From IMG/VR virus record IMGVR_UViG_2778261534_000002: a stretch of DNA of 52,137 bases, one strand, 5' to 3'. A model generated the notes under the pieces. That model worked only from the letters and a program-made list of their open reading frames with translations, was not told where the DNA came from and made no database searches. This document shows positions 1,492-47,868 of the stretch, one piece after another. The translations under genes were made by a program, and so were the position numbers. The stretch's first letter is position 1, and each line of letters opens with the position of its first letter. The stretch comes from a virus (Duplodnaviria; Heunggongvirae; Uroviricota; Caudoviricetes).

Positions 1492-2101
1492 GAATAATTA
1501 TGTTCTTCTTAATTATGATGAGTTAAACGAAAAGGGGCTGGCAAAACTCGTCAAAGAAATCAGCAAAGGTGGTTACAAGATAGCGAGGGTGATCCCTGCA
1601 AGTAATGGCAGGAAGAAAGATGGGATCATGACGCGCACGTTTACTCTTATTGGTATTGATGAACAGACAATGGAAGTTCAGGTTAACGATACCGGTGATA
1701 TATCTGGGATCAAACTGAATGGTAAAACAGTACCGTTCAAGCCAGTAAAAACAATGTCGGCTTTGGGGCAATCTCTTGCGGCTTTATTTAATCGCGGAGC
1801 AACTTCTTTCCAGAAGTCATTAGCTCGAAAACTTGCTCGTGCAGCAAAAAATATTGATGATGGAAATAAGAAGCGGCAGGGAGTTAAATCTAACGCTCAG
1901 AAATTAGCTGAAGCGAAAGAATCACGTGATGCACTCCGTGAAGATATCGCTAATGCTAACGACAAACTGTCTAAACTCCAGAGCAAGTCAGACAAAGTAA
2001 TGCAAGATACGGGTAACGTTAAAGCTGCCTTGTCTCAGGAAGTAGCTAAGACACGTGCTCTTAAAGAAGAAATCGCGCGCCTGGAGGATGAGCATGATTA
2101 A
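1481..2101 (+). CDS. Hdf-like protein (homolog of DarA fragment)
   Basis: 206 aa from ATG 1481 (SD GAAGGAG); weak resemblance to an internal region of the downstream DarA-like protein; ORF-track start GTG 1466 overlaps the upstream gene. Confidence 0.4.
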   Translation: MSNKNNYVLLNYDELNEKGLAKLVKEISKGGYKIARVIPASNGRKKDGIMTRTFTLIGIDEQTMEVQVNDTGDISGIKLNGKTVPFKPVKTMSALGQSLAALFNRGATSFQKSLARKLARAAKNIDDGNKKRQGVKSNAQKLAEAKESRDALREDIANANDKLSKLQSKSDKVMQDTGNVKAALSQEVAKTRALKEEIARLEDEHD

Positions 2102-4031
2102 CAATCCTTTACGAATTAATATTCAGTCTACTTTTGCTGATACGATCCCCGGCTATATGCCAAGTCGCTGGTCTTCAGAAGAATTAAGCGAAGATGACCT
2201 GATTTTTGAGGCGGCGACCTTAGAAGATATTGAGCTTGCCTATATGGGCAATGAAATTCTGGTTGTGTCTGACGAAGCTATGTTTGAGTCCATAACTACA
2301 ACCAGAATTCGGTTAGCTCAAACAATGCGAGCTTTCGTCCGTGCGCTGAATCGTGGCCTGAATGGTACGAATATTATGGCAGGGACTGATGAAGCTGGGA
2401 CCGATGAAAATGGACGTAATTGTATTGGTGGTGCGATTATCGGTCGTGTACGTCGGGTAGCTAATATCCCTGTTTTGACCGCGCAGATACCGCTTACTGA
2501 CGGGCAGAGTACAAGCATAATTTTCCACTCTCCAACAGCTGACGGGGCAAAAATAAAGAGTAACGACGAGCTTGTTGCATTTCAGTTTTTACTTAATAAG
2601 CGTAACGTAACTCACGTTGTCGCCCCGATTGGTGGGAGAGATGTTTCTTTAAGCCAGGTATGCCAGGCGCTATCTAATTTGATTGAGCGTAACAGCGAAA
2701 AATTTAAGAAAGCAAAAGAGCGCCAGGACAAAATGAAGGCAGATATTGAGAGTTATCTCAATGAAGCAGATAAACTGGCAGAAGAACGGTCAATAATGAT
2801 TGATCAGGTGGAAGTTGCGCAACGTGGGCTGACTGAAAAGCGTGCTGCTCTTACGGAGATGCAAAAAAAACTTGATGCCCAGAAAGCTATCAATGAGGAG
2901 TTACAAGCAAAACGCGATAAATTGTTGTCTTCTAAAGGAGAAAAAACGAAAGAACGAGCGTTTAGTGACCAGCTGCGACATGTAAAACATAATCTTGCCA
3001 TTGACGGAAAAACAGTGCTGGATAATGGCGCTGAAGTTAATTATGTCACGTCCGGCAGTGACAATTTCGTTACGATAGTAGCACCTGAAGGTAAATTCAG
3101 TATTGATGCCAGTGCTGTCAAAGGAGGCAGTTTGGCAGATGCTGCAACCAAATTACTTAAAGCCTACCGAGAGCATAACGCAGAAAAATATAAAGTTGAT
3201 TTGTTACCAGGCCAGCTGGAAGACTCCGAACCACCACAGACGGACCCCGAAACAAACCCAGTATCACAACCAGAGAGCCAAGATGTAGGTAAATACCACT
3301 ATGCACTTCAATCTCGCCCGGCTGGTGTTGGTGCTGTTCCGGATGGAAATAAAGCCGTGCTTGATCGTCCTGACCAGGCTGATCAGTATTACGAATATGC
3401 TCGTCACGGTATCATTACGTATGACCGTAAACTGACAGATGAAGAAGTCAGCCAGTACGAGTTGCTTTATCTTCCTGATGAAGATGAGCTGAAAGATTTT
3501 GCAGGCCAATTGGTTGCGTCCAGCATGTCGAAACATATTGATGGCTATGTGGACCTGTTTGGCAGTGACCTGAAAACATTCAAGGCGCAAGTGAAAATTC
3601 TTTTCCGCAAAGCGTTTCCAAACGTGGCGTATCCACTTAGTGATGGGGAGAACCTTTTCATTATGGACGTGTATAACGCCCTTCAAAATCATTCAAGCGA
3701 AGTAAAAACAGAGCATGTGGTTGAGCCAGAATCACAACCACAACCACAACCACAACCAGCACCAGAACAGGAGTCGGAGCCAGAAGAAGCGGGTGAATCA
3801 GCAAGTGAAGCTGATCAGGAAGCAGATAAAGCGCTGGAGTACCTGAAATCCGTGCCGGAGCAGTTTACATCCCGCGATCTGACGGTCATCAGTGCTGAAC
3901 TTGATCATGTGCAGGAAGCAGCAAACGCTCTAATCAGTGCAGGTCGATACGACGAGAACGAAGCCACTGTGGGTGCAGCAGTTGACTACCTGATCAATAT
4001 TCTGGCTGAAATTCAGCAGGGAGGTGTTTAA
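2094..4031 (+). CDS. DarA-like capsid-internal antirestriction protein
   Basis: 645 aa from ATG 2094 (GGAGG SD; ATGATTAA overlap with upstream stop); size and operon position match P1 DarA; coiled-coil region and PQ-repeat linker. Confidence 0.45.
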   Translation: MINNPLRINIQSTFADTIPGYMPSRWSSEELSEDDLIFEAATLEDIELAYMGNEILVVSDEAMFESITTTRIRLAQTMRAFVRALNRGLNGTNIMAGTDEAGTDENGRNCIGGAIIGRVRRVANIPVLTAQIPLTDGQSTSIIFHSPTADGAKIKSNDELVAFQFLLNKRNVTHVVAPIGGRDVSLSQVCQALSNLIERNSEKFKKAKERQDKMKADIESYLNEADKLAEERSIMIDQVEVAQRGLTEKRAALTEMQKKLDAQKAINEELQAKRDKLLSSKGEKTKERAFSDQLRHVKHNLAIDGKTVLDNGAEVNYVTSGSDNFVTIVAPEGKFSIDASAVKGGSLADAATKLLKAYREHNAEKYKVDLLPGQLEDSEPPQTDPETNPVSQPESQDVGKYHYALQSRPAGVGAVPDGNKAVLDRPDQADQYYEYARHGIITYDRKLTDEEVSQYELLYLPDEDELKDFAGQLVASSMSKHIDGYVDLFGSDLKTFKAQVKILFRKAFPNVAYPLSDGENLFIMDVYNALQNHSSEVKTEHVVEPESQPQPQPQPAPEQESEPEEAGESASEADQEADKALEYLKSVPEQFTSRDLTVISAELDHVQEAANALISAGRYDENEATVGAAVDYLINILAEIQQGGV

Positions 4032-38125: not shown

Positions 38126-38394
38126 GGGCAGGTGTTCCCTTCCGCAAAGTAGGGAAAACTGCTATCAAGTTCATCACACCATCTGCGATGGTGGTAGCAC
38201 CAAAACGCCTCCCACGGTGCACGGAAATACTTCATCCACCAGGACACTCGATCAGGTATATCTGCTGGTGGCAGTTCTTCTGGCAATAATTTGCCTGATA
38301 ATTCCCTTTCCGCCCGCGACAGCATTTTTTTGAGGCTCGCGTTCTCTTTTTCAAGCTCATCTACGCGCACCTGTAATTCAGCTTTCGTTGGCAT
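38110..38394 (-). CDS. small coiled-coil protein with Cys/His-rich C-terminus
   Basis: 94 aa from ATG 38394 (SD GAGGTGG); CYHHRRWC ... CPQC zinc-binding-like tail; last gene of leftward operon. Confidence 0.4.
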   Translation of the reverse strand: MPTKAELQVRVDELEKENASLKKMLSRAERELSGKLLPEELPPADIPDRVSWWMKYFRAPWEAFWCYHHRRWCDELDSSFPYFAEGNTCPQCRG

Positions 38395-39544
38395 GGTCCA
38401 CCTCATGCTTTTCAGCCACCAGCGGCAATAAAGCCCTGGCCATCTTATGAACCAATAGTGCATCAATAATGCCAAGTGTATGCCCCGGCTTAATGTTTAA
38501 TGCCGCCTCAAGGTGACACCTTTCCAAGCCACTTTTCTCGGCTTGTTTATGATGATCTGGCGTAATAACGTCGCCTAAAACACGGCTAATTCTTTCTCGT
38601 AATTGCTGGGTGCCAGCACACTTGATCGCTGTATCGTGGAGACGGTTAACCAGTTCGCGATAAACATGCGGCTTAATTCGGATACGTTCACCGGTGACGC
38701 CCTTTCCTGGCGCTGGCACCGAACTATCCGGAATATCCGGATAGTTGCCAGCCAGTCTACGCAAAACGGCCTTAACAGCCTCAATACGGTCATCATCGCA
38801 ATTTTCCAGAGTATCTATGCGATCGAGCATGATGATGGCGTTATCAATATCAGGATTGCCGGTCCACTCATTACCGCGATTGGATTCGGCAGCCTGGTTG
38901 CCGCGTACTGGTTGATTATCGGCTTTACCCAGTCTATCGTTGCTGCATGAATGCCCTTCCAGCCAGGCCAATGCTTGTCGCATGAAATACGCAATATGTT
39001 TGCCGTGGTAATCGTCTTCATTGATGTGAAAAGCGATACTGCGGATGTATTCAATTGCGTTTTCAATAGCCTCCGGCGTTATCGGCGCTGACATATTTTG
39101 ATTTTGGAGTGCCAAGACGCGGCTGGCATCCTCAACACCTTTAACGGCATCTGCGCAGTAGTTATAGCGATTGCATTCCACTAACTTCTGCTTGAGGTTT
39201 TCAATTGCTTGCGCGACATCAGCCTGCATTACCGGAACTGGCGGAGTGGTATATAGTTTTCGGCATTTGTTTATCCAACCGGCATGGTCAGGCGTGTCTG
39301 TAAAGCGCAAATCGTTTTCGTAGCCCTCACGACTACGTTCTTTCCATTCCGTCCACGGAACACCGCTATTCCAAGTGGGGCGAGTGCAGGACTGATACAG
39401 AACAGGTTCAGCTTCCAGCGCTGCCAGAGCAATCCGTGCCAGTTCTTCCGCTTCTTCTGCTGGCAGTACAACGTTGCTACCAGGTCCGTATGTTTCGCGC
39501 CACTGCTTGATTGCCAGCAGTCGCTCTTTGGTAATAGTGGTCAT
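38378..39544 (-). CDS. hypothetical protein
   Basis: 388-aa ORF in leftward operon; no recognizable motif. Confidence 0.5.
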   Translation of the reverse strand: MTTITKERLLAIKQWRETYGPGSNVVLPAEEAEELARIALAALEAEPVLYQSCTRPTWNSGVPWTEWKERSREGYENDLRFTDTPDHAGWINKCRKLYTTPPVPVMQADVAQAIENLKQKLVECNRYNYCADAVKGVEDASRVLALQNQNMSAPITPEAIENAIEYIRSIAFHINEDDYHGKHIAYFMRQALAWLEGHSCSNDRLGKADNQPVRGNQAAESNRGNEWTGNPDIDNAIIMLDRIDTLENCDDDRIEAVKAVLRRLAGNYPDIPDSSVPAPGKGVTGERIRIKPHVYRELVNRLHDTAIKCAGTQQLRERISRVLGDVITPDHHKQAEKSGLERCHLEAALNIKPGHTLGIIDALLVHKMARALLPLVAEKHEVDHANES

Positions 39545-39947: not shown

Positions 39948-40709
39948 TCACTCTCCTTTGATGCGAATGCCAGCGGCGCGTGGCACATTAACTTCCACGA
40001 TGCGCACAGTTGGTTTGTACATCTCAATCGCTGTCAGCCAGTCAGCGCCGGTCATATGCTTTTCTGCATCGCCATTAGTCCATTGAACCGGCACACCAAT
40101 AGCTTTCATCGCAATTTCTATTTCCCCGGCAATGGCGCTTTTCCCGCAACCAGTAAAACCAGAGACAACGACAAGAACTTCGCCTTTGGCTGGTTTTATT
40201 TCCCGTGCTTCCAGTTCTGCAATGCGCTTCTCTGCGGCTTCCAGCTTCTCGCGCATATCGTCAACGTACTCGACCAGAGATCCGCCAGCAGGAATTTCGC
40301 ATTCCTCGACCAGTTGGAAGTAGATATCAGCTGCGGCCCGTGTGTTGCTATGCCTAGCGTCGCCCATCTCACCTTCACGAAGAGCATCGCGTTCGGCGGT
40401 AAGATTGGCTATTTTGCTGTCTTTGCCTTCCAGCTCAACGCGCAGCCTCCCAACCGTAAGCGCAATATCCTCGTTCTCCTGGTCGCGGCGTTTGATGTAT
40501 TGCTGGTTTCTTTCCCGTTCATCCAACAATGCCAGCGCGATATCTGGCGAAAAGTGCTTCATAAAATCGTTAAGCGCATTAATTCGCTGATCGAAAGGCA
40601 TTACAGGTGCTTCACCGGCAATTTTTGTTTTTTCAGCGATTTCACGAAGCTTTTGATAATCAATCTGGCTCACTGGTTGCCTCCTTTGCGGAGTTGCGCT
40701 TCGATGCAC
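39948..40709 (-). CDS. coiled-coil protein with C-terminal Walker A-like motif
   Basis: 253-aa ORF (start uncertain); central coiled coil; GFTGCGKS P-loop-like motif near C-terminus. Confidence 0.45.
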   Translation of the reverse strand: MHRSATPQRRQPVSQIDYQKLREIAEKTKIAGEAPVMPFDQRINALNDFMKHFSPDIALALLDERERNQQYIKRRDQENEDIALTVGRLRVELEGKDSKIANLTAERDALREGEMGDARHSNTRAAADIYFQLVEECEIPAGGSLVEYVDDMREKLEAAEKRIAELEAREIKPAKGEVLVVVSGFTGCGKSAIAGEIEIAMKAIGVPVQWTNGDAEKHMTGADWLTAIEMYKPTVRIVEVNVPRAAGIRIKGE

Positions 40710-40909
40710 GAAAAAAAAGACTCCCGAGTATGACTGTTAAGAGCTGGTGCGAACGCCGCGTTAAGAACGGCAGCATCACAGCCGTCATCAATATAGAGCG
40801 CAATTTTTTTCTCCAGGCGCGCTTTGGCTTCCTGCAACTGCATACCCCGGCACGCACGCGGGATATAATCAGCAATTTGAGCGATAGCTTTTTCGTTCTG
40901 TTTAAACAT
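40670..40909 (-). CDS. hypothetical protein
   Basis: 79-aa ORF, overlapping neighbours in operon. Confidence 0.35.
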   Translation of the reverse strand: MFKQNEKAIAQIADYIPRACRGMQLQEAKARLEKKIALYIDDGCDAAVLNAAFAPALNSHTRESFFSCIEAQLRKGGNQ

Positions 40910-44200: not shown

Positions 44201-44505
44201 TTTGTTTTCTCCTGTCTGAACATCACTATCATCAGGTCGCCTTTTGTCGCTATCCTCGCTGTTGTGCCTGGTTCAATGCTGCCAAGTTCAAATGCGTCAT
44301 AGAACGCTTCTAATGCCTTCTGGCGTAGTTCCTGTTTGCGCCGTTTTTTCCACTGTTTCAGGAAAATGGAACCCAGCCATCGCCATGTACGGGACATGAT
44401 GTAAAGCCAACCGAGAAGTGCCAGACCGGTATTTAGGGCCGTATCGAGCGTTATCGTGGTGTCGATATTCACTGGCTGCTTCCTTTGCGAATCTGTTCCG
44501 CCCAT
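44197..44505 (-). CDS. hypothetical membrane protein
   Basis: 102 aa; hydrophobic helix LALLGWLYIMS followed by basic stretch. Confidence 0.4.
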   Translation of the reverse strand: MGGTDSQRKQPVNIDTTITLDTALNTGLALLGWLYIMSRTWRWLGSIFLKQWKKRRKQELRQKALEAFYDAFELGSIEPGTTARIATKGDLMIVMFRQEKTK

Positions 44506-45254
44506 TCTTCAAGGGATTTCTCCGCATATTCACCGGACAGGCCATCAAGCGGATGCGGTTCATTAGCCAACTCTTCTTTCGCTGACAAAATCATGCGTGT
44601 AACGTCGAAAACTTCACGCAAAGACTTATTGATAAATCCGTGATTGAACGCAGCAGCAAGACGGCTTGCGGTGTAGTTAATCCCCTCGTTGCGTGCCTCC
44701 GCACGTACTTCAGCCAGGAAAGCGTCGGTGGCCGGAGTTTCAGGAATCCGTCTCCTCATCAGTTCTATTGCATGATTGAACCCGAAATCTTCCGCGAGAG
44801 ATACGTCATCCATATTGTCATTGTCATCCTCAATATCCCGTGATTCTGGAATTGCAGACTTTATTCCCGCATTCTCCGCCGCCAGCGCCGCGCAATTACC
44901 CTCCAGCTCTGCAATGCGCTGTTTTGCGGCATCAAGTTCAATCGATAATTTTTCCAACTGCTCTTTATGCTTCTTGTATTCCTGATATGCGTGCCAGGAC
45001 TGACCTTTGCGCACACTATCAGTAATATCAGTAATCTGTTCTGGTGTTAGCGTGGTCAGTGGCTGTGCTGGAAAAATCATCACTTGCCCGGCATCCCAAT
45101 CAAAACCCACCTGAATTGACTGAACCTCAACTGATGGTGTTGAACCGATGCGACCAGGCGAATGAACAACGATCGTTACATCCATATCGCGACGATGGCT
45201 GTGGTTGTTGGACAAAATACGATTCACCAACTCAGAAAATTTGGAAAATTTCAT
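44469..45254 (-). CDS. coiled-coil paralog A (Ea22-like family)
   Basis: 261 aa from ATG 45254 (ATGA overlap with upstream gene); shares coiled coil ([15 protein letters not shown]) and C-terminal block ([19 protein letters not shown] ... EQIRKG) with 45574..46242 and 46239..46748. Confidence 0.5.
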
Positions 45255-45577
45255 GCTGATTCCCTTTGCTCTTCCTGGATAATGTTGTTGCAATCTTTCA
45301 CGCACTCGTTGCAGATGAAAACGTTGTCCCCGGCAATTAACTTTTTAACGGTGTGCTGGGATTTGTTACAGAAGCTGCAATAAAGCGTTGGACTGGCTGA
45401 TACGGATGGTGCGCCAGATGTCAGCCGCGCGATGTCGTTCTTGCGACGCAATATCACACGGCTGCACTCGACCAGCATCTCCGGGGATATCTTCTCCTCC
45501 GTAGCGAGCGTTTCTAATCGTTCGAGTATGTGGAAGGCTTTTTCCTGGGTAATTGCAGAATGCGATGTGGTCATCAT
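45251..45577 (-). CDS. protein with ClpX-type zinc-finger domain
   Basis: 108 aa; C-terminal [35 protein letters not shown] closely matches the ClpX N-terminal C4 zinc-binding domain pattern. Confidence 0.6.
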
Positions 45578-46242
45578 CTTTTCCCTTCAAAGTTCGGGCG
45601 CAGGCAGGATTGTCCTTTACGAAGCAGGGCTGCGAACCTGTCAGCCGCATCCGCGCAAGCAGAAGCAACGGAATCAAAAAATGGATCATCTCCGGTATCG
45701 CGCATCGTCAAAGCGAATGCCTCCAATCCCTGAGCCTGTATTTCAACAAGGTAAGCTTCAGATGTAGTGCTTTTCACCTCGCCTAATTTGTTATGAGCTA
45801 TGTTCGCTACACATGCGATGTCTATATCTGGATGATTAATTGGGAGATGGCTAAGAATTTCCTCAAGTGCTGCTTTTTTGTTTTGGCATTCCGCCACCAG
45901 CGCCCCGCAATTGCTTTCCAGCTCTGCAATACACTTTTTAGCGGCTTCCAGCTCAACACGCAGATTCTCAAGCGTTAGAGCCATCTCCACGTTCTCGTCC
46001 AGCAGTTCAATCACATCAGGATCGCTATCATCAACTACTGTTATGCGCGATTTTTTGTAATGCTCGTCAGCATAAGTTCGTCCAGTTTTGAAGCATCCGT
46101 CTTCCTCCATGCCAGAACAGGCATAAACAACATGTGATCCAGATATGCGCTGCATTGACATTTCCTCGCCACAAACAGAGCATTTAGGCGCTGGTTTCGG
46201 TGAAAAACGTTCACGTAACGTCTGATAATAAAGCTCGCTCAC
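45574..46242 (-). CDS. coiled-coil paralog B (Ea22-like family)
   Basis: 222 aa; N-terminal Cys cluster, coiled coil [29 protein letters not shown]. Confidence 0.5.
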
Positions 46243-46748
46243 TGGATGACTCCTTTACGAAGCTGTTCGGCGATATCTTCGAGAACGCCATCAGAGAATG
46301 AGCGGTCAAAATCGCCTTCCGGCGCATTAGCCATAAACTCAGTAGAGGTAAGAATCATCCGGGCAATATCCGCGGCGTTCTTCGCAGTATCATCAATAAA
46401 ACCAGCTACCCAGGCAGCCAGCATTCTGTTCGCCACAAAGTAAGCGCCCTCCTTGCGTGCTTCAGTCTTCACTTCATCCAGGAAAGTGTCGGTCGCAGGA
46501 GTAGTTTTTTGTGGTGATAGGGCGATACGAATTGTTTCAAGAGCTGGATCTATTTCCACTGTTGGCACCTTGATAAAACCAAGCTGCACGCCATTCATAA
46601 TGAACGTGCGGCGATCCTCACATATCGCCTTCAGTCTCGCATTCTCCGCAGCCAGCGCCGCGCGCTCTTTCTCAAGTCGGGAAATTTCCGTTACATACTC
46701 AGCGTTACGCTCTGCCAGTTGTGCGGGCGTTAAACCTTCAGACTTCAT
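46239..46748 (-). CDS. coiled-coil paralog C (Ea22-like family)
   Basis: 169 aa; coiled coil and C-terminal block TPATDTFLDEVKTEARKEG ... EQLRKG. Confidence 0.5.
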   Translation of the reverse strand: MKSEGLTPAQLAERNAEYVTEISRLEKERAALAAENARLKAICEDRRTFIMNGVQLGFIKVPTVEIDPALETIRIALSPQKTTPATDTFLDEVKTEARKEGAYFVANRMLAAWVAGFIDDTAKNAADIARMILTSTEFMANAPEGDFDRSFSDGVLEDIAEQLRKGVIQ

Positions 46749-47055
46749 ACACTCTCCTTTCGAAATAAACGTACTGATTAATCATGCCCAGGGGCATTTC
46801 GAGTTTTTCCGCGATCTCACGGCGGGGAACACCACACTGATGAAGCTGCCGTGCCAGTTCTATATCGCTCTGCCGGTATTTGGCTGACGGATGAAAGTCT
46901 CCTTTCAGAATCATGCTGATCCCCAACTCCCGCGCTTTAGTCCTGACGGCATCACCGGTACGACCGATCAGCTTCCCAATACTCTCGACCGTCATAGTTC
47001 CGGCGCACTGGCGGAGTATCATGATTTCTGCCCTTCCCCATCCCCGCCAGCTCAC
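46738..47055 (-). CDS. HTH DNA-binding protein
   Basis: 105 aa; two helix-turn-helix-like segments (TVESIGKLIGRTGDAVRTKAREL; VPRREIAEKLEMPLG). Confidence 0.45.
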   Translation of the reverse strand: MSWRGWGRAEIMILRQCAGTMTVESIGKLIGRTGDAVRTKARELGISMILKGDFHPSAKYRQSDIELARQLHQCGVPRREIAEKLEMPLGMINQYVYFERRVYEV

Positions 47056-47678
47056 GCCGACATCCTCTGAGACATAAACTCCACAAAACGAACTGCATCT
47101 TCAGAAACAACGCCGCATGACTTCAGATAATTCATTGCGTCATTAGGTAGCGGATTAGTTGGTTCGGCATTTGCCAGGGATTGAGATAAACGCGTGATTA
47201 ATTTGACCATTCTCCGCTGCCGGAGGTTGTATCCTTCAGCTAAAGACAGGTAACTGGAAAGGGTATTGCTTAAGCGGGCGCGAAGCTGATCCGTGCCGTG
47301 ACATTCAATAGCAACATCACGTAATGCATCGACCAGTTCACGGTAAAGATGCGCTGCCATTCTGCAATCTGTGTCAGATGGTGCTTCATAAATTACCGTC
47401 AACCCCAGTTTTTCAGCCAGAGCGTGTTCTGCACGTGCTCCTGCGGACACATCCCATCCCTTAAGCAGATAGATCGCATCAGCAGAACGCACCATTGCCA
47501 GACAAATATCCATGTATTCGCTCTGGCAGAGGCCAGCAGGTAACAGCGCCGGATTCAGAACAATATGCCCTTCCTCCATCAGCTCTTTTGCTTTCGAAAA
47601 AAACGCTGTGCGGTTGTAGTCGGGATAACCAGTCATCGGCCCCGCGATGTAAATTTTCAAAACACATCTCACCATCAA
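47052..47678 (-). CDS. DUF4406-like (nucleoside 2-deoxyribosyltransferase-like) protein
   Basis: 208 aa; N-terminal IYIAGPMTGYPDYN ... LLKGWDVSAGARAEHALAEKLG resembles the nucleoside 2-deoxyribosyltransferase-like fold; extra C-terminal domain; first gene of leftward operon. Confidence 0.45.
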   Translation of the reverse strand: MMVRCVLKIYIAGPMTGYPDYNRTAFFSKAKELMEEGHIVLNPALLPAGLCQSEYMDICLAMVRSADAIYLLKGWDVSAGARAEHALAEKLGLTVIYEAPSDTDCRMAAHLYRELVDALRDVAIECHGTDQLRARLSNTLSSYLSLAEGYNLRQRRMVKLITRLSQSLANAEPTNPLPNDAMNYLKSCGVVSEDAVRFVEFMSQRMSA

Positions 47679-47868
47679 AATTTCCCCAGCATCGTGACGA
47701 AAAACATCAGCACGGCAAAAAGCTCAATACCTAATTCAAGTAGCGCCAACGCCCCGAAAAAAAACACATAGAACAGGCCAATCTCATTCACAGATGGCTG
47801 GTGGATCGCACTTAAAGCTATAAGCATCATGTCCTCCAAACATTTATCAGTGATGATATTAATGTTTT

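Follow-up and report, generated by a model that had tools for sequence, protein, structure and literature searches.

Mosaic coiled-coil genes of the Ea22/EaD and EaE type in a D6-like phage-plasmid: putative recombination joints and ribosome-binding sites embedded at gene ends

Three genes encoding small coiled-coil proteins (referred to here as A, B and C; Table 1) lie next to one another on the minus strand of virus record IMGVR_UViG_2778261534_000002, a stretch of 52,137 nucleotides (nt) that is called the window below and that represents a D6-like (P1-family) phage-plasmid of Escherichia coli. Together with a fourth gene of the same operon (D), they probably belong, as mosaics, to the EaD/Ea22-EaE(Oad2) family of enterobacterial phages, a family already known from the accessory proteins Ea22 of phage lambda and EaD and EaE of phage P22, and in the anti-defence protein Oad2. 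Sequence comparison showed that the conserved blocks of these genes are largely recombination joints and that the array was built by homologous recombination at three such short joints, rather than by local duplication: the end of the coil (AALAAENA, joint 1), the start of the tail (PATDAFLxEVxA, joint 2) and the gene boundary (QLRKGxxQ*/GTG, where the asterisk is the stop codon). The proteins are small and acidic and follow a plan of head, short coiled coil, linker and helical tail, with heads, linkers and tails assorting independently both between phages and between co-resident genes.

The original prediction held that A, B and C are three tandem paralogs, interrupted by a zinc-finger gene, that share a coiled-coil region and a conserved C-terminal block. 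The three open reading frames (ORFs) were found to be real, to lie on the minus strand and to have the zinc-finger gene between B and A. To compare them, the proteins were split into head, coil, linker and tail, and each part was compared against shuffled sequences. A and C were clearly related (BLASTP E = 2e-24; 38% identity over 159 amino acids, aa); their tails (residues 171-261 of A and 81-169 of C) scored 177, whereas shuffled sequences averaged 24.8 (z = 33) and none of 1000 shuffles did as well, and their coils showed weak similarity (z = 5.2). The similarity of A to B (BLASTP E = 7e-10) was carried by the coil (z = 11.8), the two coils being 82% identical over 67 nt of DNA. The tail of B, which retains only degenerate versions of the conserved C-terminal motifs, was not significantly similar to that of A (z = 1.6) or C (z = 0.6). 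Direct comparison of B with C was not significant either (BLASTP E = 0.42; coil z = 1.6), and these two are linked solely via the family profiles phrog_368 and phrog_492, both of which match A, B and C. The heads and linkers of the three proteins were mutually unrelated in the shuffle comparisons. The predicted common block therefore stands as a homologous tail in A and C, while A and B share essentially the coil, and the count of three was too low, since D is a fourth Ead/Ea22-like gene. That the genes encode related, modular coiled-coil proteins is supported by these data. A similarity confined to low-complexity coiled coil, with genes that would be functionally unrelated fillers, would agree with the A-B and B-C results, and for A-B the similarity is in fact essentially limited to the coil; for A-C this reading is refuted by the tail score, which lies outside the coil. 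Considering also the strong purifying selection on the tail, its confident predicted fold and the thousands of conserved homologs (see below), it is extremely improbable as an account of the array.

In homolog searches, C had 3,964 relatives and A had 4,926, and a census of breakpoints was made on the 120 closest homolog clusters of each. Among the closest relatives of C, 116 of the 120 were near-identical to it only from aa 29-33 onwards, diverging just upstream of AALAAENA. The closest relatives of A were near-identical to it up to aa 179-185, at joint 2, and then diverged (112 of 120). The C and A copies of joint 1 showed 89% DNA identity over 35 nt, and those of joint 2 showed 79% over 56 nt. 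The only invariant internal columns in one homolog alignment were the L, A, E and N of ALAAEN and the P, T, D, F, L and E of PATDxFLxE. The linker and tail of C (at 86-97% identity) were found joined to seven genuine head types, including the head of A (protein P0024, present in 185 contigs), two Ea22-type heads and the head of Oad2 (P0005), while the head, coil and linker of A were joined, after joint 2, to four genuine tail types. P0126 was composed of the A head, the C linker and the A tail. Each module had copies 94-98% identical elsewhere, associated with other partners. Another protein, P0362, was discarded because its six 'stretches' of match reflected a spurious repetitive protein.

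The crossovers could be mapped in the sister plasmid pDEC12A-1. One of its genes, encoding 261 aa, corresponds to nt 1-396 of A (94.7% identity) followed by nt 85-510 of C (97.9%), with a 36-nt overlap that encodes AALAAENA; its first gene consists of nt 1-119 of C and then of A from the ETPATD codons onwards. The window and pDEC12A-1 therefore carry reciprocal head/tail combinations. A different rearrangement was observed in the sister plasmid L005 (NZ_CP058659), in which a homolog of B (positions 1685..2386) starts with residues 1-13 of C (MKSEGLTPEQLAE) as an in-frame fusion; this is an array contraction in which the body of C was deleted.

The original prediction explained the array by tandem duplication and diversification, and proposed dN/dS (the ratio of non-synonymous to synonymous substitution rates) as a check. 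The genes are adjacent, lie on one strand, have motifs in common and are 79-89% identical in short islands of DNA, and their copy number differs between sister plasmids; all this could indeed be expected of a recent in-situ duplication after which the copies diversified rapidly under positive selection. However, synonymous sites were saturated between the A and C tails (dS 1.37), so that a recent duplication is not supported and the dN/dS of this pair is uninformative. In addition, the heads and linkers of A, B and C are unrelated, every module occurs elsewhere in other combinations at the high identities given above, and EaE-type and EaD-type genes were already together in P22, where eaE and eaD lie in one operon. 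The dN/dS values, which ranged from 0.05 to 0.6, gave no sign of positive selection: the C tail compared with P22 eaE gave 0.05 (dS 1.5), and orthologous comparisons gave 0.1-0.6. The individual modules were shown to be under purifying selection, and the duplication scenario is accordingly considered very unlikely.

The C tail is, according to its model, a real folded unit. AlphaFold2 predicted a three-helix bundle for aa 82-169 of C from an 89-sequence alignment (helices at residues 3-33, 41-60 and 69-84 of the model), with a predicted local distance difference test score (pLDDT) of 93.2 and a predicted template modelling score (pTM) of 0.76. A fold search with this model found no informative match, and no Pfam model covers the module. 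At E<=0.001, the C tail was matched by 296 clusters (50% identity level, 1.84 billion representatives), and in the best 150 of these 296 clusters the match was nearly always C-terminal.

Direct reading of the gene ends showed that the terminal RKGxxQ* motif is written CGY AAA GGA nnn nnC CAG TGA. An AAAGGA(G) Shine-Dalgarno sequence is thereby located 7 nt upstream of a GTG start codon that overlaps the preceding stop (GTGA); at the C/B junction, for example, AAAGGAG lies 7 nt before the GTG start of B, which overlaps the C stop. All gene ends in the operon have a purine-rich Shine-Dalgarno sequence and an ATGA or GTGA overlap, and equivalent junctions are present at lambda orf73/ea22 and where P22 eaE and eaD end. 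These features indicate that RKGxxQ is constrained by the embedded AAAGGA ribosome-binding site and the overlapping start codon of the downstream gene, which accounts for the 'common K/RGE motif' noted without explanation in PMC7093339. An unrelated gene of 79 codons located upstream of D (orf79) shares with A and C only its ending, ...IEAQLRKGGNQ*, and the GTGAGC junction. The DNA of the orf79/D junction was 75% identical to that of the C/B junction over 65 nt. BLASTP detected no similarity between orf79 and C, and the idea that orf79 could be a stand-alone tail was rejected, since only the terminal junction is common. The embedded ribosome-binding site also explains why orf79 has the ending but lacks the domain; the junction behaves as a mobile boundary between genes that is put in front of EaD-type heads.

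Assignment to the family rests on several profile and pairwise comparisons. Pfam model PF13935 (Ead_Ea22; gathering cut-off, 27 bits) matched B at model positions 1-113 (5.6e-12, 46.8 bits) and A only in the coil part of the model (positions 75-138; 2.4e-8, 35.1 bits), while C matched neither this nor any other Pfam model. Matches to Phage_scaffold and other coiled-coil Pfam models were rejected as coil noise below threshold. Besides phrog_368, which matched A at 1e-82, phrog_614 matched A and C strongly (C, 1e-44) and B weakly, and phrog_14548 matched A and C (C, 2e-53). A, B and C had no matches in NCBIfam, and a PDB (Protein Data Bank) sequence search using A and B yielded nothing below E = 0.1. 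The comparisons with D indicate that it is the true counterpart of lambda Ea22 and P22 EaD: it was 58% identical to lambda Ea22 across the N-terminal 88 aa (E = 3e-25) and matched P22 EaD at 3e-16. B was a weaker relative of EaD/Ea22 than D (E = 4e-6 with lambda Ea22; 4e-5 with P22 EaD) and was 97% identical to D6 orf92. The Ea22/EaD head (MSxIxxQxLRE...LLDE) is present in B and D, and absent from A and C, which showed no significant similarity to lambda Ea22. In B this head carries a Cys-rich insert (aa 21-50, CSVCGEE...) that resembles a small zinc ribbon; neither lambda Ea22 nor D has it. The EaE-type tail (PATDAFL to QLRKG) of C was 86% identical to that of P22 EaE (E = 7e-52), and that of A was related to it (E = 4e-24). 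The B tail is of a different, shorter type, which aligned to the QGLE-type tail of P0145 (E = 2e-14). None of the tails of A, B and C showed sequence similarity to the C-terminal domain (CTD) of lambda Ea22. On a 100% identical plasmid, RefSeq labels A and B as ead/Ea22-like family proteins and C as hypothetical.

The likeness to known proteins extends to their organization. P22 EaE (NP_059592) resembles A and C in its coil, which ends in ..ALVVENGALK, in its PATD-type joint and in a tail that ends in AAQLRKGVQS*, and its gene end has an embedded AAAGGAG like those of the array genes; it differs in having another head and linker, and its PL early-left operon is that of a lambdoid phage that integrates, not of a phage-plasmid. 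Lambda Ea22 and P22 EaD share with B and D the MSxIxYQxLRE head and the LRVELEAAK coil, and are likewise acidic mosaics of modules that end in a K/RG-x motif (PMC10834534, PMC7093339). The tail of D contains a Walker-A-like GFTGCGKS and ends in AGIRIKGE*, as lambda Ea22 does. Ea22 is a mosaic protein with acidic CTDs, of which up to three variants occur per Stx-phage genome (PMC10834534, PMC7093339). These variants (V1-V3) are mosaic, have a common coil and different CTDs, and coexist in one genome (PMC10834534), but they all keep the Ea22 head, while the array described here also has different heads and EaE-type tails and lies in a P1/D6-like element.

The relative with a reported function is Oad2 (gp27 of phage HK446). 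It inhibits the P2 OLD nuclease by direct binding, which keeps OLD from being activated, and was described as related to P22 EaE and sometimes fused to EaD/Ea22 (bioRxiv 10.64898/2026.07.10.737580). Alignment and BLASTP showed that Oad2 follows the head-coil-linker-tail plan of A, B and C and has all three joints; besides the Oad2 head found on the C linker and tail in P0005, an Oad2-like tail is carried by P0129, an allele of A. A homolog of Oad2 in HK75, 54% identical to it, is inactive, anti-OLD activity being specific to the allele (bioRxiv 10.64898/2026.07.10.737580). When both were compared, head and coil were the same and linker and tail were different, so that they differ only after joint 1. 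OLD specificity would therefore reside C-terminal of AALAAENA, and specificity should be located in the swappable linker and tail, where A, B and C also differ. A, B and C lack the Oad2 tail and are therefore not predicted to act against OLD. An anti-defence or host-interaction role, which the original prediction had also suggested, is nevertheless plausible by analogy. The coil would oligomerise the protein, and the exchangeable linker/tail would bind a host or prophage protein directly, so that the operon would carry several inhibitors with different targets; these could be immunity proteins, as in the case of Oad2 and OLD, or lysis-lysogeny or stress factors, as for Ea22 of lambda and Stx phages.

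Several observations argue against this reading. The joints may simply be structurally constrained helices that permit recombination, and not selected exchange sites. The linker and tail of Oad2 differ from those of A, B and C, and the BLASTP matches to Oad2 were limited to the coil and joints in A (4e-12) and C (8e-5), with B at 0.33; the inactivity of an HK75 homolog as close as 54% also implies that family membership is no predictor of target. Full-length A was modelled by AlphaFold2 with a pLDDT of only 49 (and was left out of the fold search for this reason), confidence being limited to the coil helix around residues 90-130, which has a heptad pattern with hydrophobic residues at 7/8 a/d positions; the coil of C spans only about three heptads. 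Finally, a promoter scan and a search for P1 C1 operators in the intergenic region at the operon head found no convincing sigma-70 promoter or operator, the early expression of the operon being inferred. When A, B, C, D, the zinc-finger protein and orf79 were analysed with PADLOC, none of them matched any defence-system model.

Two other functions were weighed. Published work describes lambda Ea22 as a tetramer that is made early and favours lysogeny, and deletion of ea22 leads to faster induction and lower host survival (PMC10834534, PMC7093339). The proteins could thus be modulators of lysis-lysogeny or of maintenance, like Ea22 of lambda and Stx phages, targeting host replication, the cell cycle or stress rather than immunity. 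The Ea22/EaD heads of B and D, the ea22 deletion phenotypes and the temperate phage-plasmid nature of the element are in line with this. On the other hand, A and C are not significantly similar to lambda Ea22, and A, B and C lack its CTD, which is a mixed alpha/beta dimer, the C tail being modelled as all-helical; moreover, this proposal describes a phenotype and not a mechanism, and is compatible with anti-defence. It is considered possible, although somewhat doubtful. A, B and C are also acidic (pI 4.8-5.0; net charge -7.5 to -15), a coiled-coil oligomer is plausible, and lambdoid members of the family adjoin recombination and anti-RecBCD genes, all of which could suggest that they are acidic mimics of DNA, comparable to Ocr or lambda Gam, and obstruct defence or repair enzymes that bind DNA. 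This is very unlikely: charge alone is weak evidence, there was no structural match to known mimics, and for Oad2 the report is of binding to OLD and a block on OLD activation, with no DNA mimicry claimed.

Turning back to direct inhibitors with exchangeable specificity, a more speculative extension can be put forward tentatively. The locus might be a combinatorial cassette array in which co-resident paralogs swap their specificity tails and linkers at the AALAAENA and PATDAFL joints, and, given how alike their coils are, they may form hetero-oligomers; the phage-plasmid would thereby have a battery of direct inhibitors, quickly reconfigured, against different immunity proteins of the host or of prophages. 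The reciprocal combinations of the window and pDEC12A-1 would be an example, and OLD-family and related ABC-ATPase/TOPRIM systems would be candidate targets.

Table 1. Positions of the array genes, their modules and joints, and related features (coordinates of the window)
Feature	Position	Strand	Description or evidence
Gene A	44469..45254	-	261 aa; beta-rich head (phrog_6026), coil, acidic linker, EaE-type tail
Gene B	45574..46242	-	222 aa, GTG start; EaD/Ea22-type head with CxxC...C...C insert, coil, short beta-type tail
Gene C	46239..46748	-	169 aa; short head, short coil, linker, EaE-type tail
C tail module, aa 82-169	46242..46505	-	Predicted three-helix bundle
B coiled-coil segment, about aa 86-131	45850..45987	-	DNA and shuffle similarity to A coil
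ClpX C4-type zinc-finger gene, between B and A; not a family member	45251..45574	-	PF06689 1e-17; RefSeq
Gene D, fourth family member	39948..40673	-	Lambda Ea22/P22 EaD counterpart; RefSeq ead/Ea22-like
orf79, unrelated 79-aa gene ending ...IEAQLRKGGNQ*	40670..40909	-	Same junction, upstream of D
Joint 1 in C, AALAAENA, aa 30-37	46638..46661	-	Breakpoint census; DNA identity to A copy
Joint 1 in A, AALAAENA, aa 122-129	44868..44891	-	pDEC12A-1 crossover map
Joint 2 in C, TPATDTFLDEV, aa 83-93	46470..46502	-	Invariant alignment columns
Joint 2 in A, aa 173-185	44700..44738	-	Breakpoint census; four genuine tail types follow
C/B junction, CGT AAA GGA GTC ATC CAG TGA	46239..46259	-	Direct reading; 21-nt repeat family, three copies
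A/DUF4752 junction, CGC AAA GGA AGC AGC CAG TGA	44469..44489	-	Direct reading; Shine-Dalgarno and GTGA overlap; 21-nt repeat family

The identity of the element was established from sequence and gene content. The 3-kb array region was 100% identical to E. coli plasmids of about 93 kb (for example NZ_CP027309, 'unnamed2'), and it matched the P1-family phage-plasmid D6 with 93.5% identity across 60% of its length. P1/D6-like genes surround the array (phd/doc, an S24 humD-like peptidase gene, hot, ppp, a pdcB-like gene, ref, icd and ant), and a lambdoid prophage was rejected on these grounds. The gene block itself is nevertheless of the lambdoid 'ea-region' type. The array sits in a long, translationally coupled accessory operon: A, B and C belong to a long string of minus-strand genes with overlapping stop and start codons, in which D lies 4 kb downstream of the array. 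The flanks of the array, a DNA-binding/DUF4406 side and a DUF4752 side, are conserved, and the number and content of the genes between them vary among sister plasmids. The array locus is not discussed in the population paper on D6-like plasmids.

Other genes of the operon were also inspected. The zinc-finger protein is free-standing (107 aa) and is found as well in D6, where its gene is annotated as 'carboxylate--amine ligase', and in the sister plasmids L005 and L006, whereas L003 and L004 lack it. Since phd/doc is also on the plasmid and ClpXP acts on Phd of P1 as a substrate, the zinc-finger protein might be a ClpX adaptor or a substrate-recognition decoy. The operon is headed by a small hydrophobic ORF of 54 aa (47675..47839, minus strand), which precedes the DUF4406 gene and faces the divergent ref. 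A gene encoding 388 aa (38378..39544, minus strand) has a P22 EaA-like N-terminus (E = 4e-6). This protein and the C-terminal half of the DUF4406 protein (47052..47678, minus strand) have in common a 40-aa module, YRELV..L.D.AI.C.GT.QLR.R.S (E = 1e-10), which indicates that other genes of the operon are mosaic too.

Ea22, EaD and EaE have long been part of the dark matter of lambdoid phages, and only recently was their relative Oad2 shown to be anti-defence. The array is an otherwise ordinary case of phage mosaicism; what its analysis adds is a map of the joints, an account of the terminal motif and a specificity hypothesis that can be tested. The C-terminal K/RG-x ending, previously unexplained in the literature, can now be read as an embedded ribosome-binding site. 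The joint map, the natural head/tail swaps and the contrast between Oad2 and its HK75 homolog lead to the concrete hypothesis that specificity would lie C-terminal of AALAAENA, in a lambdoid accessory family that has colonised P1/D6-like phage-plasmids.

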